64,000 nt of DNA, taken from contig CDROCS010001677.1 in the NCBI GenBank assembly GCA_977020255.1, forward strand, positions 310,001 to 374,000. Reading direction: 5' to 3'. Both the position numbers and the translations under genes were made by a program. This document shows positions 7,401-64,000 of the stretch, one piece after another (positions within the stretch are counted from its first letter, which is position 1; every line of letters starts with the position of its first letter). The notes beneath the pieces are model-generated. The model saw nothing but the letters and a program-made list of their open reading frames with translations. It had not been told where the DNA came from and did no database searches. The DNA is from Obrimoposthia wandeli (taxonomy: Eukaryota).

Positions 7401-7756
7401 CGATCTCATGGAAAAGTTATGTAGCCTAGAAAATAGCTTATAACGTTTTTAATATACTAACTAGACTTTAAAAAGACTAAAATTCCCATGAAATTTTCTT
7501 TAAAATAAATTCAGTCTATTCAATTTTGGTTTTGACACATGAAAATAATGATATCAATATAGGCAATACTTTTAAAGTGGAATTCAATAGATCAGATATC
7601 AGAAAATGCATTCTTAATTGTTTAATGAGAAAGTTGAATATCACTGAAATGATGCAGTTTCCCACAGGACAACAGAATTACTTGCCCTACATTTGAAACA
7701 ACTAACCCGGGTAATTGTTTAACTCTGTGTGGTGTGTGTATGTTTGAAGGACTCAC

Positions 7757-8118
7757 GAAAAGAAACAGGAGTCGAAGCTGCTGGAGCGATGCAACTCGGT
7801 ATCGTCTTCGGTGGCCAGAGCAGCAGCCCCAGGCTGCACCAGAGGCGAGTTCTTTTGATGCTGGGCTGCTGGAGGCGTATGAGGCTCGGCAATGACCACG
7901 TCTGCTGGCAAGATGGCCAATTCTCCTAAAGAAGAGGACAACGACAGCGCGTCGTCATCCTCCTCTTCATCCGGGAACTGCAAGCACAAGGGGGTGGGTT
8001 CCTCCTCGTCCTCATCCTCTTCTTCATCATCCGTCTCCAGGGCTATCACCTTTGCCACAACAGGCAAGTCTTCATCTTCCGGCATAGGCCCCGGCTCCGT
8101 GACAACCGCAGCAGCGGC
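7757..8118 (-). CDS. RAPGEF1: C3G-like exon (highly acidic)
   Basis: GC-rich ORF AAAVVTEPGPMPEDEDLP...ETDDEEEDEDEEE...SSSFDSCFF. Phase-0 acceptor ggatag (weak) and donor gtgagt (phase 2). Confidence 0.65.
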
Positions 8119-14328: not shown

Positions 14329-14636
14329 CATACGGACTGTGCGAGAGGCAGATACGCGCAGTGCCCCATGGACGGTGTTTCCTTCCTCGTTCTGCTGTCG
14401 GTACTTGCGCATGTAGCATATGCTCTTGGAGCGCTCGTGCGGAAGAAGCGATTCTGACAGCTGCATCCATGAGGCTCCGCTGTCGCCAACACTGATGTCA
14501 GCTGCTGCCAATGTTGCCGAGCCTGAGCCGACGTGGTGGGAATAGCGCATCTGTTCTCGCCGCATCTGCTCCGAAGTCAACAGCACCGGGTCGGACTCCA
14601 CATCGGATTTGCCGAACCGGTACATGTACTTGGCGA
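14329..14636 (-). CDS. RAPGEF1: C3G-like exon
   Basis: Acceptor ccccgcag, donor gtgagt; phase 1 to 0. (I)AKYMYRFGKSDVESDP...SICYMRKYRQQNEEG...RTVRM. Confidence 0.75.
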
Positions 14637-15076
14637 CTGCGGGGCACCGAATCAACGTTATGTTGTCAACCAATCAGGTGCAAGCTGTTATGAAAATTCC
14701 AATCGCATTTCCTGCACTTGTGTGTTAAAATTGATAAATATTGATGAGCTGATTTTTTATGTTTCACTTCTAATTTGCGTTTAGTATGGATAACTTTCAA
14801 GATGTTAAATGTAAAAGTTGCAACTTAAACTGATGACAAAAGGCTGGTAAATCTACAATTAATGCCACTATAATGTGCTTTAAGTTAAGTCCATCTGTCT
14901 GTATGTTTTAGTTCAATTCTTGACAAGAGGAGCTAGCTAAATCCATTAAAGATTCCAGAGATGACCAGCAGTTCTCATAACACAACACAATTGTTACCGA
15001 TCAAACTGGCCAATGGTAGCGTCGTACAAACATGAATGGTTCGAGATGAGGAGTCTAGTGGACACACGACACTCAC

Positions 15077-15308
15077 TCGGTGGTAGAGGCTTGCTTGGAG
15101 CAACACCGCCTCCGCTACTGCTGGGAGGGAGTGCCGTGGAAGGGACGATCTGGTTCGCAGCTGAGGTGATGGCGAGATTGACAGCAGCGGCGCGACTGTC
15201 CACGCTAGATAGGAACATGGAACGACTGACGCGCAGACGATCCTCCTTGCTGTGGCGTTTCATCACTTGCAGTTGGGGAGACTTTAGATCCTTTGGAGAC
15301 TGGATAGG
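15077..15308 (-). CDS. RAPGEF1: C3G-like exon
   Basis: Acceptor tatttcatgcag, donor gtgagt; phase 0 to 1. PIQSPKDLKSPQLQVMKRHSKEDRLRVSRS...SKPLPP. Confidence 0.75.
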
Positions 15309-15369
15309 CTGCATGAAATAGAAATCATCAAAATGTTGGTTTTCAAAAAAGAAATTCTGAATCACAAAC

Positions 15370-15543
15370 CGGAGAGGCTAAACTCTGCGGCGGAGGAGCG
15401 ACACCTTGGAAGAGACACGGGGCAGGGCCTTCAGTTGCGAGCGGTGTCGTCATTGATTCGCATCCATTCTCATCGTCTTCGCCTTCCTTGAAACCACCGA
15501 GGTCAGGTCCACTACCGTCAAATTTCAGAGGAGCAAATATCGT
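15370..15543 (-). CDS. RAPGEF1: C3G-like exon
   Basis: Acceptor gatcccgcag, donor gtttgt; 174 nt, phase 0 to 0. TIFAPLKFDGSGPDLGGFKEGEDDENG...QSLASP. Followed by a 61-nt intron (15309-15369). Confidence 0.7.
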
Positions 15544-22306: not shown

Positions 22307-22418
22307 TATGTTTGGTTGAAGATAGTTGAGGTTACGATTTGTAATTAGATACGACTTATGATTTGTAAATAAAAAATAAAATAACTTATATGATAAGATA
22401 ATAATATAATAAGAGTTG

Positions 22419-22876
22419 GTGAATGAATGAATGAATAAGAGAGTGAGAGTAAATGAGTAAATGAATGAATGAGAGAGTGAGTGAAAATGAAAGTGAATGA
22501 GAGTGAGTGAATGAATGAGTGATTGAGAGAGTAAGTGAGTTAGAGAATAAGTGAGTGAGAGAGAGTAAATGAGTGAAAGAGAGTAAGTGAGTGAGAGAGA
22601 GTAAGTGAGTGAGTTAAATATTATTAAGTAAGTGAGTGAGAGAGTAAGTGAGTGAGAGAGTAAGTGAGTGAGAGTAAGTGAGTGAGAGAGTAAGTGAGTG
22701 AGAGTAAGTGAGTGAGAGAGTAAGTGAGTGAGAGTAAGTGAGTGAGAGAGTAAGTTAGTGAGAGAGTAAGTTAGTGAGAGAGTGAGTAAATGAGTAAATA
22801 ATGAATGAGTGAGAATGAAAATGAGAGTGGATAAGAGTGAGTGAATGTATGAGTGAGAGTGCGAGTGCTGATGAGT
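22419..22876. repeat. Compound GAGT/GAAT/GTAA microsatellite with a 30-bp higher-order unit
   Basis: The unit agagtaagtgagtgagagagtaagtgagtg repeats exactly from 22641 to about 22754, with degenerate flanks. The array abuts the exon donor at 22880. Confidence 0.95.
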
Positions 22877-22880
22877 GTAC

Positions 22881-23177
22881 CTTATTCCCATCCACAAATT
22901 GGGCTGTAGCGGCAGCAGCAATGATGTCAACGTCGTCGCGCATGTCATGCAGACTGAGTAGTTGGTCAGGGTCGGTAACAAAGGTGGGGATCTGCTTGGC
23001 CATCAGCTGGTGTTTGTGCCGCTTCTGGTTACTGATTCTGTTGAGGGAGGGGCCACTGGGAGTAGAGGCTGAGGATAGATCACTGCGCACAGACGATGCA
23101 GGAGAGGCGGAACGAGGCTCGTGGGATCGGCGACACTCACTGAGAGGCGGGTCGCGGGGTCGAGTACGACGTTGGAG
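22881..23177 (-). CDS. RAPGEF1: C3G-like exon
   Basis: Acceptor gtcgtgcag, donor gtacac; 297 nt, phase 0 to 0. LQRRTRPRDPPLSEC...AQFVDGNK. Confidence 0.8.
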
Positions 23178-23384
23178 CTGCACGACACACAGAGCTAGAC
23201 TCAACGAAATCCAATATTTCAATCGAAGTATAGAAAACTAATCAATATTCATTATATTAATAATATTTAACTTTTTTATCTTTCTCTGTTTTTTTTCTTC
23301 CATTTTACATTTTTAATTTCAAACCTCCAATTTTACCCTTAAATGAAATAACATATCTCTAGGCTAAATTTCTTAGTTTCCGTT

Positions 23385-26020: not shown

Positions 26021-27800
26021 TAATTACTTGTACTAGCACTTTTCTTTAATTTGAATAAAATTCTGGCAGCTACGAACACAGATATTAAAATAACAAAATT
26101 TATCCGTGAAATTATTAAAGTGCTTAAAAAAGAAGAAAGTGGATATCAAATATCGAATACAGCTTTTCCTGCCATTTTCAATTTTCCTAATTTTAAAACT
26201 TCGACCTCAGATTTAAAACTCCAAGTTTGTATTTTCTGATAACAAATGAAAGAAATCCGACAATTTTCATCAGCTGTAATTCAAAAAGCAACTTTGAGTT
26301 TTGATGGAGTATCATTTTCGGAGTAATCCAAAGTTGTATAAAAACTGTCATAGCACTATCACAAAAGCTCATGTTTTAAAAATGTCTAACTACACCAATG
26401 TGAGGTCAACTTTACAGAAACGGAGAAGTGTTTGTACTCGGCACGATTTTCCATAGAAAAGGCGAAAACTTGAATATTTCGTGTCGTTTAAGGCCGATTA
26501 AACTTTGTTAATTGTGGAAATTTTATTAATTCAAAGTCGAGATAATTTTACTATGATTCAAAAAATATTTTCTATATTTTATTTAAACTACTTGAAAATG
26601 GTCAATACTAAATAGACACTTACGTGGTGATGAGTGCGGAGAATAAATTACCATCATTAATGCACAATAAAGTCTAAGACTGTAAACTGATGTATCAGCA
26701 ACCATTTGGTGAAGCTTTAATTGGCCACTCGTGAACCAATGAGCGCTGTTCAATTTTCTGACAAATTCGTGGGGCATTATGCAATTTGATAAACAATTGA
26801 AAGGATCTGTAAGTCGGTGGTGATTGAGAAAGGGATGTGAAGAACTCAGAAAAATAAATACAAAGCTATTACTAAAGTTAGTTAATACTTTCTAAAATTA
26901 CATTATTTCCTCATGTATATAAAAATGGGATTTGATATTTAAAAAACAGAATTCGCATATTTGCTAGAGTATATATTATGTTGCTCGATGTTTGCCCGAA
27001 CAAGCCGTTTAAGAACGCGATGAGACGAAGAAGAACGAGTGGATGTGGACCGATGTGTGAAAGCGGGACCTCCTACGGCAACCAAATCGTTCAAGAAATG
27101 ATGTATCAGCATTGCAATGGACGATCTGATCTGAAAAGATGATAGCGACAATGGCCGAACAACCATTGAGTAGGCCGATCATTTTGGGGGTGTCAGCGAA
27201 TGTAAACTATCACTAGCAATAATAGATTTCTAATTACGCTGTAACAAACTTTAACTTTAGTTTTCGCCTTTTAACAAAATAGCATATTTATATTCTAAGT
27301 GTGTTAACTTATCTATATATAATAAAGACAATTCCATTTCGTCTCGATTTTGAGACATCAACATGATCAGAAAAAGATTTGCATACAAAATATCACAAGG
27401 TGACATATACATGAACCAGTATATTTAGTTACTCTATGAAGCATTTAATCGCTCTAATGTTTAAATAATAATTCCACTTAAATTTTAGCAACAAAAAATC
27501 ATTATACTTTAAAAAAAAGTTCTTTATTTAGCTCAGAAACACACATCCCTTATAAAGAGTTTCAAAACGCGATTTTTGAGCTTCATTTTTCGATTTTCTA
27601 AAATAGCTGAAAACTCAGATAAAGTTGAAATTTGGATATGACATTTTGGTTTTATAAATAAATACTCTTGAATATTAAAAAAGGTTTATTTATTTTGGCT
27701 GCAAATAGAACTTACTCTTTGTATCTCATAATATTCTTCAATCACAACTTTATACTTAATATTTCATAATTAAAATTAAACAATACAAGGAATGACGAAC

Positions 27801-28028
27801 CTGTATCTGGGAGGAGGACGATAGCACCGAGAGTGGGGAGCTGCCAGTTGTGATAACCGACACAATGGCAGGCGAGCGAAGCGGGAAAGAGCGGTCTAGA
27901 AAGTTAGGGTCACAGGGTGATTGTTGAGTGATTGTTGAGGAACGCTGAGACAAATGCACTCGTCTTCGCTGCTGCGAGGGAAAGTCCTGCAGACACAATT
28001 GTCGACCCGGTGGAGTGCTGTTACGCTG
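27801..28028 (-). CDS. RAPGEF1: C3G-like exon (Ser/Pro-rich)
   Basis: Donor gttcgt. The phase-0 acceptor cacctctcccag gives 228 nt, QRNSTPPGRQ...SSSSQIQ. An upstream acceptor (exon starting at 28068) would be phase 2, so the 5' boundary is uncertain. Confidence 0.65.
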
Positions 28029-28379
28029 CTGGGAGAGGTGTTGCTCAGATAGTGATTTTATATTCCTTCTGAAAAATTGTTCCCCTATTCGTAAATATTG
28101 AAGTACAGATGCTGTAGATAATTTAGTCATATATGAATATGGGCTCGATTTTACAGCTGTATTTGGCTATATCTATCCAATACATAAACAAAGCATAGAC
28201 AAGTGGATGTATGGACCAACAAGGCAAAAATTAGAAATTTCCATGTACCACCACATTTATATGTATTTTGAAAAGTTAAAAATTAAAATACAAGTATGGA
28301 GCAAGATATAGAAGACATAAAAGTCCACATAAAGAAGGCTTTACGCAGATAATTGTTCAATACGGCTATCATTCTATCG

Positions 28380-31900: not shown

Positions 31901-32300
31901 TGAACTAAATTTATACCATATTTAGTGGAATACGTGGAATAATATTGACTTCATCTACAATTATATTCTTGGTTCATTTAGTTTTAATATATTTTAATGT
32001 CATCTTAAATCTACAGTGTACACTTGCATTATATTTCTATTTATAAGAGTACTCCTACTAAACCAGAATCCACGCATTTGTCGATTACTTATTTCCATTA
32101 AATATTTGTGCCGTATAAGAATACAAAATTGTTCTAATTTGATTTCTCTCATTATTCTATTAAAACTCAAAAACTTAAATTTGATTTTACTATACTACTT
32201 TTAAATGACAGTAGCAAAGTATAGGTTAATATTATTATATGATATTTAGTTTTTATTAAAACGTCATAAAAATAAAAAAAAACATTTCAAAGCTACATAC

Positions 32301-32646
32301 CTTGGCTAAGGAGAGTTGATTGGGTGGTGACGGTGGTAGGGGAGGAAGAGGGATATCCCTGGATCGCCTAGGCTGCCCCAAGTCCCCATTGGCAACGGCT
32401 ACATCCGTCTTCAATGGACACGGTTGACCTGCAGTACTTGATGGTGGTGGTGGGGGCGATGGCGTAGTGTCAAGGTCGTCCATGAAGGCACCCACACTGA
32501 CAACTGGTGCGATTTTACTCCTCTTGTTGTCACTACTGTCTGTGTCGTCATGATAACCGACGCAGTCATCGGGATCACTGTCCCCATTGAGCGAGTCTGC
32601 ATCTACCGGCTTGATGTCGTGGCTGATGATCGAGGCGGCCATGATG
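32301..32646 (-). CDS. RAPGEF1: C3G-like exon (proline-rich)
   Basis: Acceptor tgttgcag, donor gtatgt; phase 2 to 0. IMAASIISHDIKP...PSPPPP...DIPLPPLPPSPPNQLSLAK. Confidence 0.8.
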
Positions 32647-33349
32647 CTGCAACATAGATAATATCACACAATAAATATATAATGTCCGAATATTTTAGAA
32701 TACTTTTCAATGTTTTCCAACTTCAATAATCATAACCCATTATTTCATTATTATTTTCTTATTTCTTAGCATGGTTGATATATCATCTTATTCGCATTGT
32801 TAAATGACATCCAAACAAACCTATTCGCAAACGAGAATAGCTCAACCAAGACCTGCATTCATAGTTCCAACTTTGGGTGTCAGTTCATTCTAAGACCAGT
32901 AAAAAGACACATTACACAACTTGTAAAAAGAATAATGTGTTAAGCAATATGGGCAAATAGCAGTGACCATCATTCTGAATTGTCAATAGAACAAAACAAC
33001 CTTAAAAATATAAGTTAGAAAAGTTCGATATTTTTCGATCATTCAAAATAGGAACTAAAACTCTCATATAGCTAAAAGACGAAATCTACCCTGATGCATA
33101 TACCCCCTTGTTTCAGCTTCATTGTACTTAAGTAATAGTTTTCCCATAAAATCAATATATTGTCACGTAGTTTACAACTCCAAAATGTCATCTTCAATCA
33201 ACGACTAATATTCCACATACATACATTGAGCACATTTTCAAACCAAAGAGTCATATGGATGTAATTTTCAGAAACCTGACCCGCAAATGATCAATAGCTC
33301 TACAGTTAAATTAGATCAGCCATGACTCGAAAAGTAGACTTTTAAGCAT

Positions 33350-44592: not shown

Positions 44593-47382
44593 CTATAAGA
44601 AGAAAATAAGTTATTCTAATCTAAATACATAATTAATTTTGAGTTAGATAGTAGTATTAAATAAATAATACATTAAATATATTGCATCAATTCATTTCAA
44701 ACACTTTGTCTACTATTTTTGTTTAAAAGTACATAATATTTGGAAAAATGAGTTTATAATACATTTTATTTTATGCATATGATAATATAAATTATATTAA
44801 TATATTTTTCTGCAAATATTAGATTTTTAAATTTTAGCGAATTTCTTACGCAAGGTTTATAGACACATCAAGGAATCAATAAGCACTGTTTCGTTGTGAA
44901 TTAATACTTGTTTATAAATAAATATAATTCCAGCGAACTAATTCATTATCACTAGAGTATGTACCCTTGTTAGAATGAATTTTACTCAAATAATCTTAAA
45001 ATTTGTATTAGTTTCAGTATAAGAAATATATTAAAAACGAAACATTTCTAGCGCTTCGTTTGAGCAATAACAAACTTGTTTCGAGCTCGCACCGAATATT
45101 ATATTTAACAATACGTCCAAGTTCGGAGCCTTCTGTTGTAAGCGAGACATGTATTGTTCGCTAAGCTCGTGGCAAGTATATGCAAATGAACTTATAATGT
45201 TGAGCAGTCTAGCTTCTCTAACTGTTTCTTCTGACAGTTTCAAGAGCGCATATGAATGTTTGACAAAATATCAAAATCAACAGAATACACCACTGCTCTA
45301 ATGTTGGTCGATTCTCTGTATGTCACTTCGATATCTAACATCTGAACGCAGATAGCTGTCCGAGTCATCAAAATTCCCCATTGTTTGACTGCATAACTAT
45401 TCCTTGTGAAGTCAACAAAATCTAGTAAAACTGCTGTTGTTGACTGATGGTCGGTGAATAAACCCCATAGTCAGAAAATACACATCTAAACAACAGTACA
45501 GTTGAGCGTTCAACCTTTTGTCTGGCTGCAATATTATTCGAACGTGTTACCGATAAAATAACTGGGATAGAGTACAGAGAGCCTATTTCAATTACAACAT
45601 TGACGTGGGTGAAGTCACTGAGAGAAATAACGGTGTGATTTTAAAAAAAATACTACAAAACCTTCAACATCTGCTTCTTAATTGTCACTTGTTAACTTCA
45701 CAAAGACTCAAATTGCTCACCTAACATAGGTGGAGTCTGAACCCACTCGAATAAGACATAACATATAACTGTAAATGTTTCTTTGTAGCATAAAGTTCCT
45801 TTACCGAAAGAAATTATATCAAGAGATGATGCACAAGGGTGCACAAAAAGGTAAAGTGTTGTCTGTACTTCAAATAGAGTGTAAACGTTACCTACTATCA
45901 ATGTAGTGCATGTACTACCCCTTTGTGCATCACTCCTTGTTTCAAGGAATTCCATATTTGATTCATAATTAAGAACTCCGTCTAAGTGTTTGCAAAAAAT
46001 AAACATTTTATTCAGTCATTGTCTTTATTCATTTTCAATTCAGTAAATTTATTCGTCTATACACAGAAATAAGAAATTGTAATTTAAAAATTGTCCACAT
46101 TTTTATTAAACTGTCTATGCTATATTTCATACATACACGTGTTAGAAGCAGTAAAATAACATTAAAAATTGGGCAGGCAGAAAAATCGATAGAGGATGCA
46201 GTCATTTCTTCTGTCTTATCTCCTAGTTCGCGGGTAGTTTTTTTACCGCGAAGCACAAGATAAAAACTGGATATCACCGACAAAAAATTGCTGTTCGACT
46301 GTGGGAACTTCGATAAATGGATTTTAATTTTGAATATTTTAATTCCCAACACACGTACATTTAACAAAAACATTGTTCTAACAATATAATGAAATTCAAA
46401 TGCTTAACAAATAATAGATGTTACGGTTTCTCTTTTATGAAATAGTATATTCTTATCTAGGCTTACTACAAAGATGTTATTTAACCTTGTCAAGATTTTG
46501 TGATATCGACATGGCCAGACATTTTCTACACAACATATCGATATAACGATCGGCAGGTGACGAGTAATTGAGGTGTGAAGTAAAACTAGAATGTTTGATG
46601 AGATTGAAAAGTGCATGGTCAGATTGGTACTTCATACAAATTTGTACTGTATATGAAGAGCCCAAAAAACGTAAATAAGTTATCAAATAGTCGCCTTTTT
46701 GGACATAAAATTATTTAAAATTATTTTCGTCGAAATCAGGATGCTAACTGTATGTTAAAAGTGATTGTATGTTATTAAAGTATTTATAACGAAAAAGATA
46801 AAGCAATGTAAAATGTAAGACTAGATGTGTAAGTTTTCCATCAGATAGAAATATTAATTAAACGAACCAAAAACCCGAAAAAATTGACATATGCTCAAAA
46901 GTTTGACTTAAAAACTACTTTAAACATGGTCATTTCCAAAGATATATTTTCGGAGCTCAAACAAATTATTTTGAATCTCGAATTTTACGAAGATTGTTAT
47001 AAGATCTTTCAGCATTGAGAATGCATATATAGTCAATTACAATGTTTGATAATAATGAATAGGTACTAACAGAACCTAACGAATACTTGAGCATCGTAAT
47101 AATAGGCTAGAAGAGTAAAACAAAGTTTTATGATGGTTTAGAATAGTTTTCATGAACGATTTGTTCAATTCTATTATCTGAAAAGTTTCTTTGTACAGTC
47201 AAAATTGGCAACTAATATCATGTCAGATTATATATTATGCAACCCTCACCCCTAAATTAGGATGGTCTTAATTTGACCCATAATTTATGCAATGTATTGA
47301 ATATCTCAAAGTTCCACGACGGATTTGGTATATTAATTTTTGGAAATGTCAGTAATTTTATACGTCAAACAAAATATAAAAC

Positions 47383-48656
47383 ACAACTAGCAGTGACCGC
47401 ACTAAAGCTAGCTATCAAATTCCCCAACCACCTACAGCATACCAATAAACACGAATGTACAACTAGCAGTAGCCACACTAAAGCTAGTGATCAGTTTTCC
47501 TAACCAACTACAGCATACCCATAAACACGAATGTACAACTAGCAGTAGCCACACTAAAGCTAGCGATCAGTTTCCCTAACCAACTACAGCATACCCATAA
47601 ACATGAATGGACAACTAGCAGTAGCCACACTAAAGCTAGCGATCAGTTTCCCTATCCAACTACAGCATACCCATAAACACGAATGGACAACTAGCAGTAG
47701 CCACACTAAAGCTAGCGATCAGTTTCCCTAACCAACTACAGCATACCCATAAACATGAATGGACAACTAGCAGTAGCCACACTAAAGCTAGCGATCAGTT
47801 TCCCCAACCACCTACAGCATAAACACGAATGGACAACTAGCAGTAGCCACACTAAAGCTAGCGATCAGTTTCCCTAACCAACTACAGCATACCCATAAAC
47901 ACGAATGTACAACTAGCAGTAGCCACACTAAAGCTAGCGATCAGTTTCCCCAACCACCTACAGCATAAACTCGAATAGACAACTAGCAGTAGCCACACTA
48001 AAGCTAGTGATCAGTTTCCCTAACCAACAACAGCATACCCATAAACACGAATGTACAACTAGCAGTAGCCACACTAAAGCTAGCGATCAGTTTCCCCAAC
48101 CACCTACAGCATACCCATAAACTCGAATATACAACTAGCAGTAGCCACACTAAAGCTAGCGATCAGTTTCCCTAACCAACTACAGTATACCCATAAACAC
48201 GAATGTACAACTAGCAGTAGCCACAGTAAAGCTAGCGATCAGTTTCCCTAACCAACTACAGCATACCCATAAACACGAATGTACAACTAGCAGTAGCCAC
48301 ACTAAAGCTAGCGATCAGTTTCCCCAACCACCTACAGCATACCCATAAACTCGAATGTACAACTAGCAGTAGCCACACTAAAGCTAGCGATCAGTTTCCC
48401 TAACCAACTACAGCATACCCATAAACACGAATGGACAACTAGCAGTAGCCACACTAAAGCTAGCGATCAGTTTCCCCAACCACCTACAGCATAAACACGA
48501 ATGTACAACTAGCAGTAGCCACACTAAAGCTAGTGATCAGTTTCCCTAACCAACTACAGCATACCCATAAACACGAATGTACAACTAGCAGTAGCCACAC
48601 TAAAGCTAGCGATCAGTTTCCCCAACCACCTACAGCATACACATTAACACGATAAA
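47383..48656. repeat. Tandem satellite, 17 units of 76 bp (three 70-bp variants)
   Basis: Unit starts (ACAACTAGC) at 47383, 47459, 47535, 47611, 47687, 47763, 47833, 47909, 47979, 48055, 48131, 48207, 48283, 48359, 48435, 48505 and 48581. The 70-bp units lack acccat. Confidence 0.97.
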
Positions 48657-50139
48657 ACAACCAGCCAATCAGAAAGGCGTTTATTAAATAAAATGAATAT
48701 GTGGCTGGTTGTAATTGATTTTAATTTTAATTAATGTAAATTCTGGAGATTATATTTGATCACCCACCGGTTTTCCGCCTATCTTATAGTTTACGCACTC
48801 CTAATCGAAAATCCTGGACCCGCCCATTTTGAATCCAACCTTTTGCTATAATGCCGATGATATATTTTTATTAAAAAATATTTGTTTTCAAATAATCTTT
48901 TATCACAATATTTCACGTAAAAGATACGCATTGGAAAATGAAATTGTACTTAAAAATACATGTATTAATATATTTGTGTGGTTAGGAAATGGTTAGGAAA
49001 TCTATGTAAATTTAGTGTAGAATGAAAACGTGTATATCTACCCATAATTTAATAAAAATAGAATTCAGTGGAGTTGAGAATTTGGTGGAAATTTCGAGAA
49101 ACATTCACAGTAATGGTCATATTTATTTAACAAAATCTAAACTAATTTACATATCGCTGAATATTTTGTATTTAAATTTTTTGCAGAAATATTGTAAACA
49201 AACGTATAAAATACTTTAAACGAAAAGATAAACTAATTCATCTTTCTTACTTTTGTAACTAAAAATTTTGCAACTTTATCCAATCTCTAAATAAACTCAT
49301 GATTATTTTTTAATTCAAAATACAAAATAATGTGCATAAATTTATTTTGTTTAATAATAATATTTCTATTTTAAAAGAATTCATTTAATTTTTAAGTGTA
49401 ATTTGGGAACTTCAGATAAATAAGAATCAATAACATCCGGTTACGTAATAAGTTAAGTAGTTATTTTCGTTTACTAATCTGTTATTCGGATTGCGGCAGT
49501 TATATAATTGCAACGAAAGAATTTATATTTTAGGTTGTGTGAATTTTCCACACAGATTTGAAAATTGCCACCCCAATATTTAATAGTATAACCTGATTCG
49601 CTATTTTATAAAACTCTTATAATATTATCAGAAAAATGTATATTTTTAATAGGAATGAATCAAAAAGTTTAGACAAAATAATCTGCGTACCTATCTGTAG
49701 TGCTCACGAACTTTTAAAATTGGTCATAAATTCAGATAAAAATAAATGTAAAGTAAGTCAAAAAGATTCCTGTAATGTTTTTTAGGATAATTTATCGGCA
49801 AGTAAGATTAAATATCTTTGTAGATCTGTTAAAAAGGAAGTTTCAAAATCGTATAATTCACTTTAATTAAACAGGATACATTAGTAGGTAGATGTAGCAC
49901 TTCTGGAACAAAACTCCCGTCCCCTGAAGATTTCTAAATGCAGATTTCTAAATAAGTATCTTATTTTTATTTCATGTAATTCCTGGCATAGATTATACGC
50001 CCATTTCTTCTCAATAAAGAGCCATTTGTGAATTACACAACCAACCACATTTTGAAGAAAAGTTTTAAAATGGAAATTTTAATCAGAGCTGTCAGAATTA
50101 CATATATATTTTTAAAAATAAATCTTTTATGAATTCCTT

Positions 50140-54336: not shown

Positions 54337-55411
54337 CTAAATATAAAATAAACAGTAAATTGTTCAACTTAGTTATCTGGAACTAAAACTTACTTTTTCG
54401 AAATGACATTACAACATATTTATTAAAAAGCTATCGTAAAATTATTTAAAATATTTTGAGTTGAATTTTAATTGAGTTAATATAAATTGTATGAATAATA
54501 TTGGAAGAGTATTTAAAATAGCATTTCACAATATTGAAAGATTTCGGTTATTATTTGATGAAAATAACTTATTTAAACAACTGTTTCCATTTAGAGTTTA
54601 TCAAATATTATTTTAAACATGCTATATTTCAATATTAAAATTCAAAAAGAATTAAATTCTTAAATTTCAAAAATATAAATGAAAGAGAAAAATTATATTT
54701 TCTAGGAAATTGATCTGCTATTTAATCGTTTCTCATATTCATGAATATTATCAATTTTCATGTATGTGGGAACAAATTAGAACATGCTTCACAGAATAGA
54801 ATCCGTCAAATAACTTTAAGGATATGAATAAAAGTTTTAAAATCTTCTTAGATTTCTATTCTAAGTTACAATAACACAAATCTAATTTCTGAGGATGCTT
54901 AGTGCTATTTATAGGACGGAAATTTGGATCTGAATTTAGCAAGCTCATTGCCACAACAAACACATTGTGGTTGGGTCATTCATCAAGGGTTTGTTACGGT
55001 TAATTATTGCCACGGTTCAACCCAAGTTCACGATCACGTTGACCACCGCACTTGGCCTATTTTTGGAGTCTTTGGCAGCCTTGAGACATCGCTTTAATTG
55101 TCGAAAATGGCTAAAATCTAAATTATATAAATACTTTGGTGCTGGATTAACAACTTCACTAAATGAACTAAAAGGCAAAGAAAGGGCTGTCGAATCTATA
55201 TTTATAAAATCGATTTTAAATTTCAAGCTCTTATTAAAATTTATCTATTATTTAAACTTTTGTGATGAATAAATTTAACAGGATAAATAAATATTTCACT
55301 ACGAACTAATTTAAATCAGTGCGTGATTTGAGGTATGAATAACTCTTGGTTTAAATATATATCATATGATTTATAAAACAGTTAATTGATAAGTATCTCA
55401 ATAATATACCT

Positions 55412-56340
55412 AGTAAGTAGGTGGATGTGTCCGGTCTAATCCACACCCCCCTCTCCCCCTTGTCCTTTAAAACCGTGCATGTGTGTGGAGTGAAATTTCG
55501 TGTAGGTGTGTGGAGTGAAATTTCATGCATGTGTGTGGAGTTAAATTTTCTACACCCCCACCCAACACTCAAAAACTAATTAACCCCATATAACACCCTT
55601 TAAAATTGAAAATCTCATAATGCTCCCAAAAAAGTGAGGAAGGTCCTGAGAGGTCGTTTAGTGGGCCAAAGCGTGCCCTCGGGGCCCGCGGTGGTTTAAC
55701 GAGCAACATATATACAGGGGCGCGAAAAAAAAATTCCTTATAAGAATTTATATCCATACATATCTAGTTAGGGTCGCGAAAAATTGTACGCGAGAAATAT
55801 TTTCGCTATAACAATTTATATCTAGATACATATATATAGGGTCGGAAAATTTTTTAAATTATCAACTACATAAATTGGAAATGATATCAACATTTTATTA
55901 GGATGAGTTATCATGACCTTAAATGACCTTGACCTCATGATGACCTTAAATGACCTTGACCTCATGAGGTCATGACCTTAACTTGACCTTCAATGACCTC
56001 TGAAAAAAATTCTACCCTTCAAACATGTACGATCAGGAAAATATTACTATTTTAAATCCAATGATATATATGTATTCAAACATCAACAAAAATTATGAAA
56101 ATACTATAAATTATTTGAATAATACGTTCTTATTGGACGTTGAACTTAAGCAACAAAAAACTTGAGAAAATAAAACTATTTTCAAATAAAATATTTTTTT
56201 TATCCAATGGCATACTCGCATTCAATCGTAGTTAAAAAATTGATAAAAGCCTACGGATTTTTCAAATAAATTATTTGAATAACCCGCTTTCATTGGACGA
56301 TAAAATAGGGTTAGTCTGTTGTTTTTGTATATAAGGAAAC
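55412..56340. repeat. Putative Polinton left terminal (TIR) region with internal short repeats
   Basis: Non-coding. GTGTGTGGAGT(G/T)AAATTT x3 at 25-bp spacing (55481, 55506, 55531), a GC-rich patch at 55664-55697, and a 27-bp direct repeat at 55913-55966. Confidence 0.6.
55914..55999. promoter_or_regulatory. Array of 10 AGGTCA/TGACCT nuclear-receptor-type half-sites
   Basis: TGACCT at 55914, 55924, 55930, 55941, 55951, 55957, 55973, 55984 and 55994, plus AGGTCA at 55967. TGACCTTGA occurs twice. Function is inferred only. Confidence 0.5.
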
Positions 56341-56351
56341 CTCTTTTCATT
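56328..56351 (+). promoter_or_regulatory. TATA/Inr-like promoter of Polinton ORF1
   Basis: TATATAAGGAAAC...TTCATT about 40 nt upstream of the ATG at 56370. Several CCAAT/ATTGG boxes lie upstream. Near-identical to 57498-57522. Confidence 0.6.
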
Positions 56352-56369
56352 ATTTTTCATTAATCAAGA

Positions 56370-57311
56370 ATGGAAAATTACAACAATGTCGATTTGGATG
56401 AAGAGATGGAGGTACATCTATATGGGGATCTCTCTCCAGTACAGCAGCGAACGCCACCACCGGCACAGTACATTGACTTACTTAGTCAAGACTCGTCGGT
56501 GGTGAGCGAAGAATACGAAGGAGAAGCAGCAGCAAGAGCCGAACTGTTGCTAGAAGAACCGCCATTGGCCAGCTCAACTCCGAGAGAAGAACCAATGAGC
56601 GTGAGAGGTGGGATACAGAGATCCCAATATATCGACCTGACTAGTCAGGATTCGATAGAGAATTGGGAAGACTGTACTCCCAGGCAAAACATAGAAGCTG
56701 TTCGTCCAGCAACGTCGGCAGTAGCAGCAGGGAGATCCAATCTATTCGAGAATTTTGAGGCGGCAATCAAATGCCCCTGGAAATTTATCCTGCTGTCTCA
56801 GCCGAAGATAGTACTCGCACCAGACAGACGAGGAGCTATTCACCGATGACGTCCCGTCGGATGGTGAGGAGGACTTGACTCCATTCATCGACGAATGGAT
56901 ACAGCCAAGTGTCGGAGCCCCAGGAGTCAACGATTCGATGGTGGCAGAATTGGACGAGGACGAGTGGCGCCTGTTCACCGACGATTGGGATGGTGTCACT
57001 CCCTCTACAACTCCAACTCCGATAGCTGACAATATGGTGCCTGATTCGTTCAAAAGACCGCAATCTCCGATACGTCCTGTTAGGAGAATAAAGGCGACGA
57101 ATGAGGTTAGACATCATTTATTTAAAATGTTTTTTAATTTTATTTTCAGAAACTTCAACTGGATTTGGCACTGTCAGTGACCACGATTGAGAGGCTGATT
57201 GAACCGCAGTACTTGGCGAGTCAATGTAGCCAGGATGATCCCAGGAGTGATCAGCGTTACCTACCGACTCCGGCTAAATTTGAGTTTTTCTTATTATTAC
57301 TTGACATGTAG
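56370..57311 (+). pseudogene. Polinton ORF1: acidic disordered protein with two SIM-like motifs; frameshifted, one 44-nt intron
   Basis: YIDLLSQD and YIDLTSQD motifs. Frame change at about 56770-56826 into ...EELFTDDVPSDGEEDL.... Intron 57106-57149 (gttag..ttttcag) continues in frame as KLQLDLALS... to a TAG at 57309-57311. AATAAA at 57389. Confidence 0.65.
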
Positions 57312-57497
57312 ATAAACAATTCTTCTAATTGGAGAAATTCATTATTAAAATTTTACAATTATTTACAAATAAGCCTTTTGATTGGAGGAATAAAAATATT
57401 TTTTTTAACCAATAACAGATAAACAATCCTTCTCAGTGGAGGAATAAATTCAATTTTTTAATCCAATAGGAAAAGAGCATGTGTGCATAAATTTTAG

Positions 57498-57522
57498 TAT
57501 ATAAGCAAACACTTTCTTCATT
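57498..57522 (+). promoter_or_regulatory. TATA/Inr-like promoter of the spliced pPolB gene
   Basis: TATATAAGCAAAC...TTCATT upstream of the ATG at 57546, preceded by three imperfect repeats carrying ATTGG/CCAAT (57312-57470). Confidence 0.6.
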
Positions 57523-57545
57523 TAAATCCCCGACAATTTGAAATA

Positions 57546-60500
57546 ATGACTATGGTAAGAATCTATACTTATTATTTCCTTAATAATATTTATTATTTCA
57601 GATTACTTGTATCCTGTTTCCAGCATATTGTGGTGCTTCGGCTCCGCATGGAGGAGAGACCTGCATGGAGATAATGTCCGCCTACTATCGGACAAAGTCT
57701 CGCGGACTTCATTTCTTCGTCTGCCCATTCTGCAGAACAATGGAGGAGAAGGAGTTTCGAGACTTCTTCGGTGAACATCGAGCTCATCTATCGTGTTTCA
57801 CGGCCAACAACAAGAAGAGGGATATCGTGCAATTGGTGCGCGATTCGCAGGCTGCTCCAGCTCCTGCTCCAATTCCAGTTGCAGTCGATCAACCCTTTTA
57901 CGGTCCTGCCATTGGTCCTTCTGTCCCGGCTCCTGATTCTGCTGCTGCCCCATCCACTCAAATGTCTAACAATGAGTGGATGAACGATATCTCCGAAGAA
58001 GATTTTGAGGAGTTGGCACCAGCAAACCAATTCTCAAACAATGACTGGATGGAAAATATCACCTAGTCAGATTTCGAGATAGAGCAGCCTCAGTGGAGCG
58101 ATAACTCATGGTTGGAGACCATCGAGGAATCCGATTTCGTCGAGATAACGGACGACAGCTGGATGGATTCCATCAATGAAGAGGATTTCATTCCAGCTCC
58201 AGTTGGATTGCCTTCATTAGGTATTTTTTATTATTATTTTTTAAAATTATATATATTATTGTAATTATATATATTTTATTTTTATTTTTTATTCAGGAAA
58301 TACCGTGATACAATCGTCATCTGCTACAACAGATATGCCTCCTCCATCGCGAGTGCCTACATCGATGTTAGCACGCCTTAGAGGTAATAATTTTTAAAAA
58401 TATATTTATTTTTTATTATATTTATTTCAGCAGCATTAACATCTACAACAGCCGCCTCTTCATCAGCAAGGTCAGCTTCTACCATTCCTACTCCAACTTC
58501 AAATGCAGCCTCTACAACTGCCACTGTCTCATCATCTGAGGCAGCATCTATTCAAGCAGCATCGTCTACACCAGCTGCGATTGCCTCAACATCGACAGCA
58601 TCACCAATAGCAGCACCTTCCACCTCAGCTGCGTTTGTGTCAACTGTTACTATAAATAGTTGTCTTCCCGTTCAATTAGGTGGATGTTTGTCAGCGACTG
58701 TAGAAAGAAAGAGGCGAGGCCAATTTCTTAATAAGGTCCCACCAAAAAAACGTAGAGAATACGGTGCTACTATAGAGTATCACCTAAATAATAAATATGT
58801 TATAGTTAAGGTGCCATTAGGAAATGAAATTTTATTAAACGTAGGTATAGATTCAAATATTGAAAATCTTTTAAAATCAGAAGTGACTAAATTAGGACAG
58901 GCTAAGGTTCAATTTTGTGCAACAGTGCAGTTTAAAAATGTCAATGAGGAGACTAAAACTTGAGTAATTTCACATAAAGCAACTGTTTTCTATGATAATT
59001 TTGTAACTGAAATTGGAAGAAACCTAGATGAAAAAATTACTAATTATAGCGAGTTAAGTAGTGGATGGACTCTAGTTAGAATTCACAATGTTAGCTTTGT
59101 TCTAACAAAGTTCACTGACATGATATATCTTTCGGGGAGTTCATACATTCCTTCACCTAGATCTCTTCAACTTTCACGTTCCATTGTTAACATACAAAAC
59201 AGTGGTAACCTTTGCTTTCTGTATAGCGTGTTGGCCATCCTCAAAAGGGGTGTAATTACTGAACATAGAGAGCGTGTCAGTAAATATACCCCTTTTTTAA
59301 ATGAATTGCAGTATCATGGAATAGATTTTCCTGTTAAATTAACTGCGATATCAAGATTTGAACATCTTAATAGCTTGAGTATTAATGTATTCAAATATAA
59401 TACTGATATCCCAGTTAATGTAACAGATGAAGAAATATTTAAAAATCCTTTTGTAGATGTAATTTATAGGAGCAAAAATGAGGGGACACAGGTCAACTTA
59501 ATTTTGCTCTAACAGAATAATAAATTCCATTATGCTGCAATTCCCAGTTTAGATCGTCTTCTAAATTTAGATAATGGAGCCTTACCGGCGAGGATAAGGT
59601 GTAAGTGGTGTCATAGATGTTTGCATGGATTCCGATCCGAGCTCTCTTACAGCAAACATCTGACATTATGTTCACTGAATCCTGATGACAATACGCTATA
59701 TAGCATGCCCAAGGATAAGGATTTAAAATTCAGGGATTGGGCAAAATGCATACCCGTGGAATTCAGGGTGTATGGAGATTTTGAGTCAATTTTAGCATTG
59801 CACGACCAGTATGAGAGTATTCACCTACCGGCTTCGGCAGGTCTACTATTCTTAGGCCCCAATATTACACAGTATCATAAAATTTCCGGTCCAAATTGTA
59901 TTTTAGATTTTATGTTAAAATTAGAAGAATTAGGAACAACAATTGTCAAACCGTGGTATGATCTTAATGCTCATCAAGCAATGATCATGACAGGCATAGA
60001 CTGGGTTAATTTTAATTCTTGTAGATAATGTAATTTGTGTGGAACCCAGTCTAAGTTAGTCAGAGATCACGATCATGTTACGGGGCGATACTTGGGAGCG
60101 GCGTGCAACCTCTGTAACCTTGGCCGTCGTCTCCCTAAAAACCACGAATTCATAGTGTTTCATAACCTCAAAGGATATGATTTGCATCATATACTTAAAT
60201 ATGCGTTGGGTACATTAAGCTCTTGGGAAATTTCATGTATACCTCAAACTTCAGAGAAATATTTATCTTTAACTGCATATACTGAATTCTGCAGTTTAAG
60301 ATTCATAGATTCTCTGCAGTTTTTGAGCGGATCTTTAAAAAATTTAACGGCATCTTTAAATGCATGGCCAATCACGCAGTCAGTGTTCCCAGCTTCGGTT
60401 AATGATAAGGGTATTTTTCCGTATAAATTGGCGAAATCTTTTGCAGATTTAGAAAATACTACAGAGTCCCACCCATAACTGAATTTGAGGGTGTAAGTCT

Positions 60501-60944
60501 TCAAGACTATAATGAGGCCCGTACATTTTGGGTGAATATTTGTCGAAATCTTCTCGAATATATGCTTTATTATATGAAATTAGACATTTATCTTTTAGCT
60601 GATGTTTTTGAGTCCTTTCGTGTAAAGTCTTTAGCAGAAGATGGGCTAGATGGGCTACCTGGTCTTTCATGGGCAACAGCAATAAAAACTCTTAAAATTA
60701 ATATCGAGTTACTGCAAGATCCTGCGATGTATCAAATGTATGATTATGGTATACGCGGTGGAATGACAACAAACATCATGTTTTCAAAAATCAATCCACG
60801 GAGATTCTGTACATCGATATTAATCATTTGAATGGGTGGGCGCTTACTCAACCTCTACCTCATGCCAACTTTAAGTGGGTTTATGATGAGGGAGAGTTGA
60901 ATAAGTTGATGACAGATTTGGCTACTGTAGATACAGTTTCATAA
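57546..60944 (+). pseudogene. Spliced protein-primed DNA polymerase B (pPolB) with N-terminal extension; disrupted and truncated after polymerase motif A
   Basis: Exons 57546-57554, 57602-58220, 58297-58383 and 58431 onward. Motifs: SSGWTL, GSSYIP..IVNIQN..CFLYSVLA, C..CL..F..H..C, ExoI VYGDFES, EndoVII RDHDHVTG..AACNLCN, ExoII FHNLKGYD, KGIFPY, ExoIII DIYLLADVFESFR, GIRGG, motif A LYIDINHL.GWAL.QPLP. In-frame stops at 58064, 58961, 59510, 60026 and 60476; frameshifts near 60500 and 60800. Confidence 0.92.
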
Positions 60945-60949
60945 GCCAA

Positions 60950-61916
60950 ATGTATAAGCCAAAGCATAAGCGTTACCTTCGAAATCTGTTTTATATGTTT
61001 CGCGATAATCAGTATTTTTTGAAAGTGTCACTGAACCTACATTAAGATTGTCAACTTAAGTTGCATCTGTCGTATAATTTCCTAGAATCTTTGCAATTTT
61101 TTGAAAAGAAATTAAAATGAATTTCGGTAATCTTACATCACCAAATATTTGATCCTTATTAAAAGCTTGTGTACCCGTACCTAAAGAGTATGTTATAAGT
61201 TTAGTTTCTCAAATAGGATAACAAGTATTGTTTTTTTCCATTCCTATATTATGTGCCATTAAAACTGATTGCTCGGTTTTAACTCTTCGGACATACAATT
61301 TTGCATCCAAAATATCAAGTCTAGGTTTTAGAACGTCTGTGCTTATCAAAGAAAAATTCCATTTATTACGTTTCAAACGAAGATGTACATTAACACCGGG
61401 AATTAAATATTTCGGTTGTTCAAAGAAATTCAATCTCAAAGACCCACACATTTCGTAAGCTTTAGAACCTGCAATCCATTCTTTGCGAGTTGCAACAGTT
61501 TTATCATAACCAATGGTTGCCAAATTAGTATTTTGAGTATCAGTACTATAATTCAAAAGACTTTCAATCAAAGCTTTATGAGCATAGGAATAATTTCCAC
61601 CTTCAATTTTGACATTATTAAGAGTAACAATGGCATCACTAAATAAAGAATTAAAGAGATAATTTACAGGTGTTACATCTGCATTTTCATCTAAATTAGT
61701 ACCATCCCGATTTAATACTTTTATTTGAACATAAAGCAAAGTATCATTCAAATCTAAATACTCGCTATTGGAACCATTAATATTAAATTCTAAATCGGTT
61801 AAAGTGGTTCCTGAAACTGAGTTAACTAGAAATATTTCTTCAAAGGAAGCATTATCTACAATTACTTGTGGAAGCGGTTTATCAAAAATTCACAATTCAG
61901 TTTTGGCGCAACTCAT
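60950..61916 (-). pseudogene. Polinton major capsid protein (double jelly-roll, PY), C-terminally truncated
   Basis: MSCAKTEL*IFDKPLPQVIVD..LEFNINGSNSEYLDLNDTLLYVQIKV..PVNYLFNSLFSD..YAHKALIESLLNYS..LRLNFFEQPKYLIPGVNVHLRLKR. It continues with frameshifts to YKTDFEGNAYALAY. Confidence 0.9.
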
Positions 61917-62296
61917 TTTGCAAATATTGTTCCTTCAACTTTCTTACGTTTGTTTATATTGATTTTTTGCTTCTTTTTATTTTTAAATCCACTACCTCCT
62001 TGGCTTTTATTTGATCTACGTTTTCTAATCAAATTAGCAACTTCAGGTAAAACATTATCAAGTTTATCAAGCGCATGCTTCTTAAAAGTTGGTATTAGTT
62101 TATTGTCCTTAGATGAAAGGTAGTCCTTTCCTAATTTTGATATAAATCGCCAGAGTCTCTTTAAAAGAGGAAAGGCAAATCTACTAATGTTCTAAGCCAG
62201 CCAGATCCGTATTTTTTACCAACAAAATATGATAATTCTTCTACTTGTTGAATGACTTTGACATATAAAAACTTCAATTATTGCTGGATTCGCCAT
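61913..62296 (-). pseudogene. Polinton basic core (pVII-like/PZ) protein, disrupted
   Basis: ISRFAFPLLKRLWRFISKLGKDYL...KSQGGSGFKNKKKQKININKRKKVEGTIFAK*. Lys/Arg-rich, with a QxGxG putative protease site, and located between penton and MCP. Confidence 0.7.
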
Positions 62297-63337
62297 TTTG
62301 TTTTCTTAAATCTATTGTTAAACTTGTCTTGGCCCCGTACGTGAAATCTATTAGTTGTCCGGAATCATCTCTAATATTTACTTCAATACTTTTTATAGAA
62401 AAGATAGAAACTGGAAGATACATTGGTTGATCTATACACATACCGACAGCGTCCCCATCTTTAGGTTCATTTTGAGAAATCCATATTGTTCTCAAAAGTG
62501 GAACTCACTGTCCTCCTACAAGTGTTGGTTCTATTAAATTAGTATAAATATATAAATGATTAAAAGCATTTAAAAGTTTTGCCTTATTTTTAGCTTTTAT
62601 GGTTTTTATTGTATTGGTTTCAAAGGTATTACTGTTTAAACCAAGGCTTTTAGCGAGTTTATCATCAAATAAAACTCGTATTATATTGCTCTTTACTGTA
62701 AACGTTATTTTACCATTTTTTAATGTTACACATTTATCGAAATATTCACTACATTCCTTCTGTATTAATTTACAGAAATTCACTTCATTATCTAATTTAT
62801 AATCTTTTGAAAACATTTTCAGTTCCACTACATACTTTGGTCTCGTTTCAACTAAAAACACTCTTGTTACTTTATCAGAACATTTTTAAACGATTAAGAT
62901 GAGGCTATATCAGATCTCTTCATACCTACTACATGTCCACTGTCAAAATCAAATTTAAGAGCTTCTCTATCAGATCCAAATATAAGTTGAATAGGTTTTA
63001 AAAAATGTTTTAGTCTATTTTTAAATCTGACTTTGTTTTTTTCATATATTACTTTCACTTCTTTATCTATACAATTGTAATAGCATTTTCCTTTACTATC
63101 AAATCCAATCACAACTTCAATTGATTTTTCATGATCAACTTCTTTTGTAAACGAAATATGTGAGTTTTTTCTGATAGTAATTGGAGAATAATAAAAGGAA
63201 AATTCTGTTAAAGCAGCTTCCAATTCTCCTTGGAGATTTGTAGAATTTTCCCAATCAATAATAAAGCTACTAGCGTAATTATCTGGTTGAGTCTTCGGAC
63301 ATCCGTTACTAGGTAAAACCATATACATAGATTTCAT
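62274..63337 (-). pseudogene. Polinton minor capsid (penton) protein, disrupted
   Basis: MYMVLPSNGCPKTQPDNYASSF..LQGELEAALTEFSF at the N-terminus; LYIYTNLIEPTLVGGQ*VPLLRTI..PMYLPV..IEVNIRDDSGQLIDF at the C-terminus. One frameshift near 62880 and one internal stop at 62505. Confidence 0.85.
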
Positions 63338-64000
63338 ATTATATTAGATGCTGATATCCAAGTTGGATCTGAATAACCATGCCATTTAACATAGTATTGT
63401 TTATGTTTTACCAGCACATAGATTTTAATATTTTTTGAATACGGAAAACACTGGTTTATTTGATATTACTTGTAGTTCTTGCTCGTAAAATTTACCGTGA
63501 ATGATATTATTGTCAAGCATCTTTAATAGTATACATTACTGGATTACTCTTTTGATCCCGATTTTACTTATACAAATATTTCATCGCTCCAATTCTGATC
63601 AAAGTTTTAATAAATGGAGTAGAGCTAATTTTCGAAATTCGGACATATTCGTTTTTCTTATATTTAGCTTTTTTTTAATATTTTCTTTTTATTCCTGTTC
63701 ATCAAATATCCATAGAATTTTTATTAATAACATCAACAGGTCTCATTCCCATGAGACCTTCTATGTTCAGTGATTATGGGCATGTATTGTTTTAGGTAAA
63801 ACTTGGATCCATTTTTTGTTTTCTTCTTTTGCCGAAATACTTGTTATTCGATCTCTTAAAGTACGATTAAATCTTTCTACTACTGCTGCCTTATACTGTG
63901 AAAACACAAGTAGTGATTTATATTATTTTTGTTTAAATAAAGATTGAACTTGTTATTATCAAAAATTCTTTTCCTAAATCAGTTTGCACATTTTGTGGAA
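63334..64000 (-). pseudogene. Retroviral-like (rve) integrase with C-terminal chromodomain, partial and frameshifted
   Basis: PQNVQTDLGKEF (second D), KAAVVERFNRTLRDRI (E), WSDEIF, HGKFYEQELQ and YYVKWHGYSDPTWISASNII*. Confidence 0.92.

Follow-up and report, generated by a model that had tools for sequence, protein, structure and literature searches.

A Polinton replicase gene of Obrimoposthia wandeli with three likely spliceosomal introns and an unclassified Cys/His domain ahead of the terminal protein

Polinton (Maverick) elements are about 15-20 kb long and, as their replicase, carry a protein-primed family B polymerase (pPolB). Intact vertebrate Mavericks have been described as having no introns (PMC8097293), and in nematode Mavericks the core genes are intronless and the cargo genes intron-bearing (10.1101/2022.07.12.499685); introners insert into dinoflagellate Polinton-like elements (PMC12166617), and the RNAs for the terminal protein precursor (pTP) and the polymerase of adenoviruses are spliced from short 5' exons (PMC11304566). 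No spliced Polinton pPolB was found in the literature surveyed (including PMC12721341), and Repbase, supplements, Kapitonov and Jurka 2006 and Koonin et al. 2024 may hold cases. Here we analyse a stretch of 64,000 nucleotides from Obrimoposthia wandeli (assembly GCA_977020255.1, contig CDROCS010001677.1, positions 310,001 to 374,000, forward strand), hereafter the window, to which all positions refer. We report that it includes a decayed Polinton copy whose pPolB gene has three GT-AG segments, which the host probably (we put this at roughly 0.8) splices out to give a single precursor from one ATG. An earlier note on this DNA had proposed such introns, and where our results bear on its claims this is stated below.

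The pPolB gene lies on the + strand, as do all of its parts, and a TATA-like box (TATATAA, 57498-57504) is located 48 nt 5' of the ATG, with identical letters in 44 of 50 copies (30 chosen by DNA likeness, i.e. 30 of 40 matches with the window included, plus 20 chosen for long open frames). The coding part of predicted exon 1 (57546-57554) comprises 9 nt, or three codons (MTM), and its ATG is present in 30/30 copies. Presumably mastadenoviruses also have a three-codon first coding exon; this was not found in the literature searched. Likely intron 1 (57555-57601; 47 nt, G+C 0.17, phase 0) is followed by exon 2 (57602-58220; 619 nt), likely intron 2 (58221-58296; 76 nt, G+C 0.05, phase 1), predicted exon 3 (58297-58383; 87 nt, symmetric, i.e. 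phase 1-1, and Ser/Thr/Pro-rich), likely intron 3 (58384-58430; 47 nt, G+C 0.06, phase 1) and exon 4, and each of the three likely introns has the form GT..TCAG. Exon 2 would encode a Cys/His domain (57602-57850) and then a Pro/Ala-rich stretch with about four acidic W-x-x-x-I-x-E-x-D-F repeats (57851-58220). In exon 4, a Ser/Thr/Ala-rich linker (58431-58672), the length of which differs among copies, leads to a QLGG motif and the basic patches RKRR and KKRR (58673-58684), a candidate protease site and nuclear signal, respectively. These precede the terminal-protein (D1) region (58760-59120; SSGW motif at 59057-59068), a vOTU-like region (59120-59545) recognised by motif and position (NLCFLYS Cys at 59213, FHY His at 59528), both with approximate limits, and the exonuclease and start of the polymerase domain (59546-60942), which ends at 60942. 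PF03175 matches 60029-60475 with E 6e-9, above the cut-off, and an EndoVII-like finger is present (E 6e-4); at E 0.01, PF03175 was not among the matches of a 1227-residue frame from another copy, the best homologs of which do have it. The Ser/Tyr linking residue near Gly and the catalytic Cys and His that follow it in a terminal protein-vOTU arrangement were recognised by motif and order only.

The G+C content is 0.48-0.49 in exons 2 and 3 vs 5-17% in the three segments. A frame-blind intron caller, which uses composition and splice dinucleotides only and ignores the reading frame, returned exactly these three segments and nothing else from 57546 to 59100. This agrees with the introns of the earlier note, whose coordinates, lengths and AT-richness were confirmed, as were the exon phases 0, 1 and 1 and the 87-nt middle exon. 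That the segments are chance or degenerate pseudogene insertions that were never spliced is scarcely credible. AT-rich GT..AG stretches do arise by chance: a stricter variant of the caller, applied to both strands, gave eight weaker candidates (all G+C 0.15-0.17) in the 55.4 kb outside the element, next to four within 8.6 kb of the element, and it missed intron 1. Against this, all covered copies of a multiplying family hold all three segments, the frame-blind calls restore the reading frame both in the window copy and in a related locus, L091, and none of the three lengths is divisible by three, so that an unspliced gene could not give the precursor. The three segments are thus most likely spliceosomal introns that would be removed by the host. 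Frame-confirmed introns of host CCT genes are 41, 48 and 48 nt long with TATT(T)CAG ends, and the likeness of the predicted element introns to host introns in size and acceptor holds; the 61-nt host intron with which the earlier note had compared them was not located among six unchecked candidates. Four sequencing runs (X1-X4) over 56300-58220 covered intron and promoter like the exons, i.e. they are DNA-like and silent on expression, and no joint at intron 1 was present among 15 listed of their 185 joints.

Once the three segments are removed, the frame from the ATG at 57546 runs to 60476 and is interrupted by four point stops (58064, 58961, 59510 and 60026). To that extent the single frame broken only by point stops, as previously claimed, stands; beyond it, small deletions near 60465 and 60766 shift the frame of the window copy, and about 2.0 kb, with most of the polymerase core, is missing after 60942. 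The stops are each present in only one to three of 30 copies (58064 in three), and the column majority has no stop from the ATG into exon 4. Per splice site, the dinucleotides are kept in 45/46, 36/38, 46/48, 41/45, 46/48 and 44/45 copies; all six sites are intact in 27 of the 32 copies, three of the 32 are open from the ATG through to the terminal-protein motif, and copies without the intron number 0/46, 0/48 and 0/48 for the three segments. The earlier note had named splice sites in other copies as a check, and this outcome is in keeping with its proposal.

These data also bear on whether there are two genes, a small spliced gene for the Cys/His domain and a pPolB that starts in exon 4 from a non-AUG codon or an internal promoter. 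In its favour there is a TATAAAT at 58651 (44/50 copies) and an AATAAA at 58790 (48/50), the related locus L079 has a spliced pPolB start without a zinc domain, and some Polintons have a split terminal protein (10.1101/2024.03.18.585575). Motifs such as these two are, however, expected by chance in AT-rich coding DNA, twelve relatives have the domain and pPolB in one frame, and the stop-free column majority leaves no break between the ATG and exon 4. Moreover, the first Met of a natural exon-4 frame, 1227 codons long, is found at codon 248 (59120), 52 nt past the SSGW motif, and the Mets found before 59120 in 4/20 copies are each at a different place, so there is no shared earlier ATG. Because the priming Ser or Tyr, beside Gly or Pro, sits in the first pPolB domain (Krupovic et al., 10.1101/2024.03.18.585575), a pPolB that starts at 59120 would lose its priming residue. 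We therefore regard two genes as very improbable.

Selection was estimated from variants common to at least three of the 50 copies with CpG sites excluded. The Cys/His domain gave dN/dS 0.18 (13 synonymous and seven nonsynonymous variants, p 2e-4), which is comparable to exon 4 at 58682-60100 (0.25), and 0.22 (p 0.02) among the 30 DNA-likeness copies; its shifted frames gave 1.5-1.8. This pattern indicates that the predicted exon-2 domain is under purifying selection. The acidic part gave 0.40 without the CpG correction, and the linker appears to be under little constraint once CpG sites are excluded. With all variants included, private ones too, dN/dS is near 1, as expected for decaying copies, and indels among the copies are uninformative, being mostly private and frameshifting in exons as well. 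As there is no shared exon-4 ATG before the motif, the domain is selected and relatives hold the domain in one frame with pPolB (see below), splicing is strongly implied.

In the window copy the candidate ligands of the domain (84 residues) are C3, C10, H16 and C21, followed by C41, C44, H59 and H62, i.e. C-x6-C-x5-H-x4-C-x19-C-x2-C-x14-H-x2-H, with C41, F55, H59, H62 and K71 invariant; the conservation of these Cys and His residues suggests that the domain binds zinc. RING fingers (C3HC4/C3H2C3) have eight ligands in cross-brace spacing with CxxC at start and end. The domain had been called RING-like, and this did not hold up, since RING ligand spacing is absent and no RING family was matched by any of eight members at E 1. 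At the same threshold Pfam gave no family for the window member, and weak single matches, two of them to zinc families, for other members. An AlphaFold model built with the alignment has pLDDT 83.6 and the order helix, three strands, two helices (a single-sequence fold, pLDDT 41.9, was unusable). Fold searches with the former model gave no PDB or BFVD match at E 0.001 and a best VIA Z of 3.0, and the best E in a PDB sequence search was 1.1; the absent fold match does not make the fold new. In thioredoxin-like proteins a conserved CxxC/CxxS follows the first strand, and the core is beta-alpha-beta. A thioredoxin-like lead was rejected: it scored 0.87, below 0.9, CGAS is lost in homologs and the topology of the model is unlike. 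The domain profile matched nine proteins, each of them linked to pPolB or closely similar to one that is, and no named host protein was among them. The predicted domain is, on these matches, an old part of the pPolB of this clade, unclassified and clade-specific.

The relatives comprise the best 80 of 540 metagenome loci (L numbers) and predicted proteins (P numbers); a scan of viral contigs gave 0 loci. The closest pPolBs are 35-46% identical. The same Cys/His domain opens P0001, P0002, P0003, P0007, P0009, P0011, P0012, P0013 (which is L077) and P0122, with Met at the exon-1 register; it is doubled in P0002 (two copies) and in L085 (two divergent copies, 2-385 and 381-1000). In L077, L078, L081 and L082 the domain, linker and terminal protein lie in a single frame with a TATA-like box 5' of the ATG, and TATATA is found 30-88 nt before the ATG in 7/7 relatives. 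Because relatives open pPolB with the same domain in one frame, the domain was not fused by splicing; the order of the domains would predate the introns or have arisen independently. Hence, of the spliced precursor proposed earlier, the inference that the module is joined to pPolB has good support, and a fusion made by this lineage is not supported. The latter would have been a capture: the lineage would have taken up a regulatory gene, perhaps from the host, that had introns and a RING-like domain, and joined it to pPolB through splicing. The size and acceptors of the introns match those of host introns, Mavericks do hold intron-bearing host cargo genes (10.1101/2022.07.12.499685), and the acidic repeats are seen in this family only, the intron-free relatives having none. 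Set against these are the nearest pPolBs, P0001 and P0002, with the domain in one frame with pPolB, the absence of RING spacing, and the nine profile matches, all of them pPolB-linked or closely similar; for the domain, a capture is already largely refuted, and overall we give it very little credence.

Short phase-1 introns are also predicted in the linker of four other related elements, which stand in a second branch of the tree. Specifically, L091 and L086 (repeated by L084, counted once) have the domain and then three linker introns, L080, the contig of which begins within the linker, has four, and L079 has two and no zinc domain. These introns are 40-53 nt long, AT-rich and all in phase 1 with open frames, and together with the window's two the count of phase-1 linker introns is 14/14. 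L080 includes two 66-nt exons that both begin IQTGGA, and these twin predicted exons are a direct sign of exon duplication. Intron 1, 5' of the zinc domain, is present in this family only among the relatives compared. Among 46 loci with enough upstream DNA, a chain of candidate introns was found in four, a single candidate in nine and none in 33, and in 37 of the 46 an in-frame Met occurs 140 or more codons upstream of the motif. In a quick tree of 41 rows, from which L083 and P0040 were omitted and in which L079 is just 26% filled, the intron-bearing rows occupy two places, and the starred branches force at least two changes, i.e. two intron gains, or one old intron and several losses. Two side observations concern other relatives: P0016, P0023 and P0040 include F/I/L/Y-rich stretches that resemble translated AT-rich introns (the one in P0023 lies within the vOTU region), and in the more distant pPolBs L101, L121 and L138 the frames open only about 70 codons upstream of the terminal-protein motif, possibly because of further introns or splits.

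Taken together, the host machinery would most likely transcribe the pPolB gene from the TATA-like box at 57498, and the host spliceosome would remove the three segments to give one precursor with, in order, the predicted zinc-binding domain, a flexible linker, the terminal protein, vOTU and polymerase. The introns may have entered the nearly unconstrained linker and multiplied through duplication of symmetric exons, at least twice, or once with several losses. As a weaker inference, the element's own protease might cleave off the leader at the GG motif that precedes the terminal protein, much as pTP is matured by the adenovirus protease. The protease of the related mavirus cleaves after GG (PMC6048507), QxGG stands before the terminal protein in 8/66 homologs and nowhere in 59,655 downstream residues, and 12 of the 19 near relatives have a wider motif, which in part falls at one homologous site. 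We treat trimming by the element's protease as a lead that would more probably fail than hold.

Several points weigh against the reading of a single spliced precursor. The splicing is predicted from DNA. The copies differ by about 2.5% from the column majority, and kept splice sites alone are therefore weak evidence. None of the dN/dS values for the Pro/acidic stretch (0.87), exon 3 (0.55) and the Ser/Thr/Ala stretch (0.65) is significant, and for the whole module the 30 DNA-likeness copies gave 0.78 (p 0.22). Apart from P0013, the P proteins are known as protein only and could hide in-frame introns; of the 14 linker introns 12 were called blind and two placed by hand; the caller gave one false hit, inside the terminal-protein region of L080; and QxGG is ahead of the terminal protein in only those 8/66 proteins.

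The same gene might also give two products, with alternative splicing switching between a zinc-domain/acidic regulator of about 220 residues (intron 2 retained) and the full replicase precursor, and the symmetric exons tuning the linker. Read-through of intron 2 does reach a stop at 58262, 41 nt in, acidic repeats with W, M and F resemble activation domains, and the common phase 1 of all 14 linker introns means that exon skipping preserves the frame; in adenoviruses, alternative splicing from common 5' exons likewise yields the RNAs for pTP and polymerase (PMC11304566). This switch, too, is read from DNA, the intron-free relatives have neither it nor the acidic repeats, and the Pro-rich and acidic stretch that it would employ is the one with dN/dS 0.87, CpG excluded; we consider it improbable. 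A wider proposal would combine these ideas: that an animal Polinton clade builds its replicase leader by duplicating and shuffling symmetric spliceosomal exons gained independently in at least two lineages, switches between regulator and precursor by splicing and trims the leader with a viral protease, in an adenovirus-like early-gene logic within a virus that resembles a transposon. As a whole this is speculative and, in our view, rather unlikely. The preferred reading stays with one spliced precursor, and we conclude that a Polinton replicase gene very likely depends on splicing and includes a clade-specific, unclassified domain.

The element, a member of a very high-copy Polinton family, starts at 55416 and continues for 4.1 kb past the end of the window. 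It is preceded by the left copy of a 6-bp target-site duplication (CTAGTA, 55410-55415), the right copy of which follows the element end, and begins with a left terminal inverted repeat (55416-55507, + strand; about 90 bp, AGTAGG...CCTACT) that is 87% alike to the right one. Inverted repeats starting with AG, a 6-bp target duplication and a protein-primed family B polymerase are all features of Polintons, and a sister copy measures 17.4 kb end to end, within the Polinton/Maverick range; the window copy is 12.7 kb after two deletions. Sister copies have a retrovirus-like integrase (PF00665 E 2e-13, Chromo E 4e-6; Pfam) and a P-loop ORF (open reading frame) as packaging ATPase (Pox_A32 E 1e-4, just under the cut-off). 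Protease- and capsid-like ORFs of the right size, in the right place and with suitable motifs (EHW...CGH) gave no fitting Pfam match; they are candidates for the adenain-like protease and the major and minor capsid proteins, assigned by place and motif only. The integrase, ATPase and capsid-like ORFs are long frames in which no introns were called. In the window, remains of capsid-like genes, a small virion-protein gene and the integrase occupy 60943-64000 on the - strand, 3' of the 2.0 kb deletion.

Left-arm gene 1 is represented in the window by its first two exons (56372-57284, + strand; acidic/basic, no Pfam match), which are cut at about 57280 by an internal deletion of 2.3-2.5 kb, the junction of which (57279-57297) is a 19-nt overlap between matched blocks. 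A likely phase-0 intron of 44 nt lies at 57106-57149 (+ strand), and the window and the sister copy (L162/L059) together give four phase-0 introns of 44, 44, 48 and 77 nt. Two of the exons start alike (EPIQLTEE and EPVRIIEE), pointing to a possible exon duplication. Short direct repeats with CCAAT/ATTGG boxes are found before both left-arm promoters (56106-56304 and 57356-57463).

All 150 scored matches are 93-100% identical both for the pPolB piece, out of 32,545 candidates, and for exon 2, out of 21,666; the two candidate counts are lower bounds and not copy numbers. Tens of thousands of candidates in a 1.35 Gb genome suggest an unusually large and recent Polinton expansion. Three copies (L045-L050, L054-L056) cease matching near one spot in 3' pPolB, about 490 nt past 60942, and this common end point may be a shared truncation or a break hot spot. 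On the host side, Cpn60/TCP1 is matched (225-265 bits) not only by the spliced CCT genes but also by about twenty frames on different contigs, each intronless and about 550 codons long, which may form an expanded chaperonin-like family. GC-richer frames on the minus strand of the window between 7756 and 32663 (7756-8163, 14311-14673, 14997-15377, 22758-23237, 27759-28166 and 32259-32663) could be the exons of a single long host gene, with no useful Pfam match. At 47231-48728 there is a tandem array of 76-nt units, and at 22385-22866 a microsatellite rich in GAGT.

If the replicase needs splicing, annotation based on ORFs loses the leader together with the terminal protein, or takes functional elements for broken ones, and surveys call Polinton core genes as single ORFs. 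It would also tie the element's nuclear transcription to a host with very short introns, thereby limiting host jumps, and a virus-like genome would be gaining introns and duplicating exons. As a target, the clade-specific Cys/His domain is small, foldable and unclassified.

Compared with known systems, the element is like Polintons/Mavericks (Eupolintoviridae; 'Alpha adintovirus') in its order of terminal protein, vOTU, exonuclease and palm, in SSGW and in the Cys/His motifs (10.1101/2024.03.18.585575; PMC8502044), as well as in inverted ends, a 6-bp duplication, a length of about 17.4 kb, an rve integrase with chromodomain, an A32-like ATPase and PF03175. It is unlike the usual Polinton in that pPolB has three likely introns where core genes are usually intronless (which is no membership criterion), and in the extra unclassified Cys/His domain before the terminal protein. 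Some pPolBs have N-terminal C2H2 fingers (P0029, P0036, P0037, P0039 and P0043) and share with ours a zinc-type module, a low-complexity linker and often QxGG; those fingers have Pfam C2H2 matches, whereas the present domain has no match and includes a further C-C-H-C set. As in adenovirus E2B, with its pTP and polymerase, protein-primed replication genes have RNAs spliced from short 5' exons, here predicted (PMC11304566); unlike in adenovirus, where kilobase introns skip whole genes and the terminal protein is separate, the introns here are 47-76 nt, of host type and within one precursor frame. Finally, nematode Maverick cargo genes and dinoflagellate introners likewise place spliceosomal introns inside Polinton-type elements (PMC12166617); those belong to captured host genes or are mobile introners, whereas the likely introns described here are in the replicase gene itself and common to all covered copies, and those of the linker share one phase.

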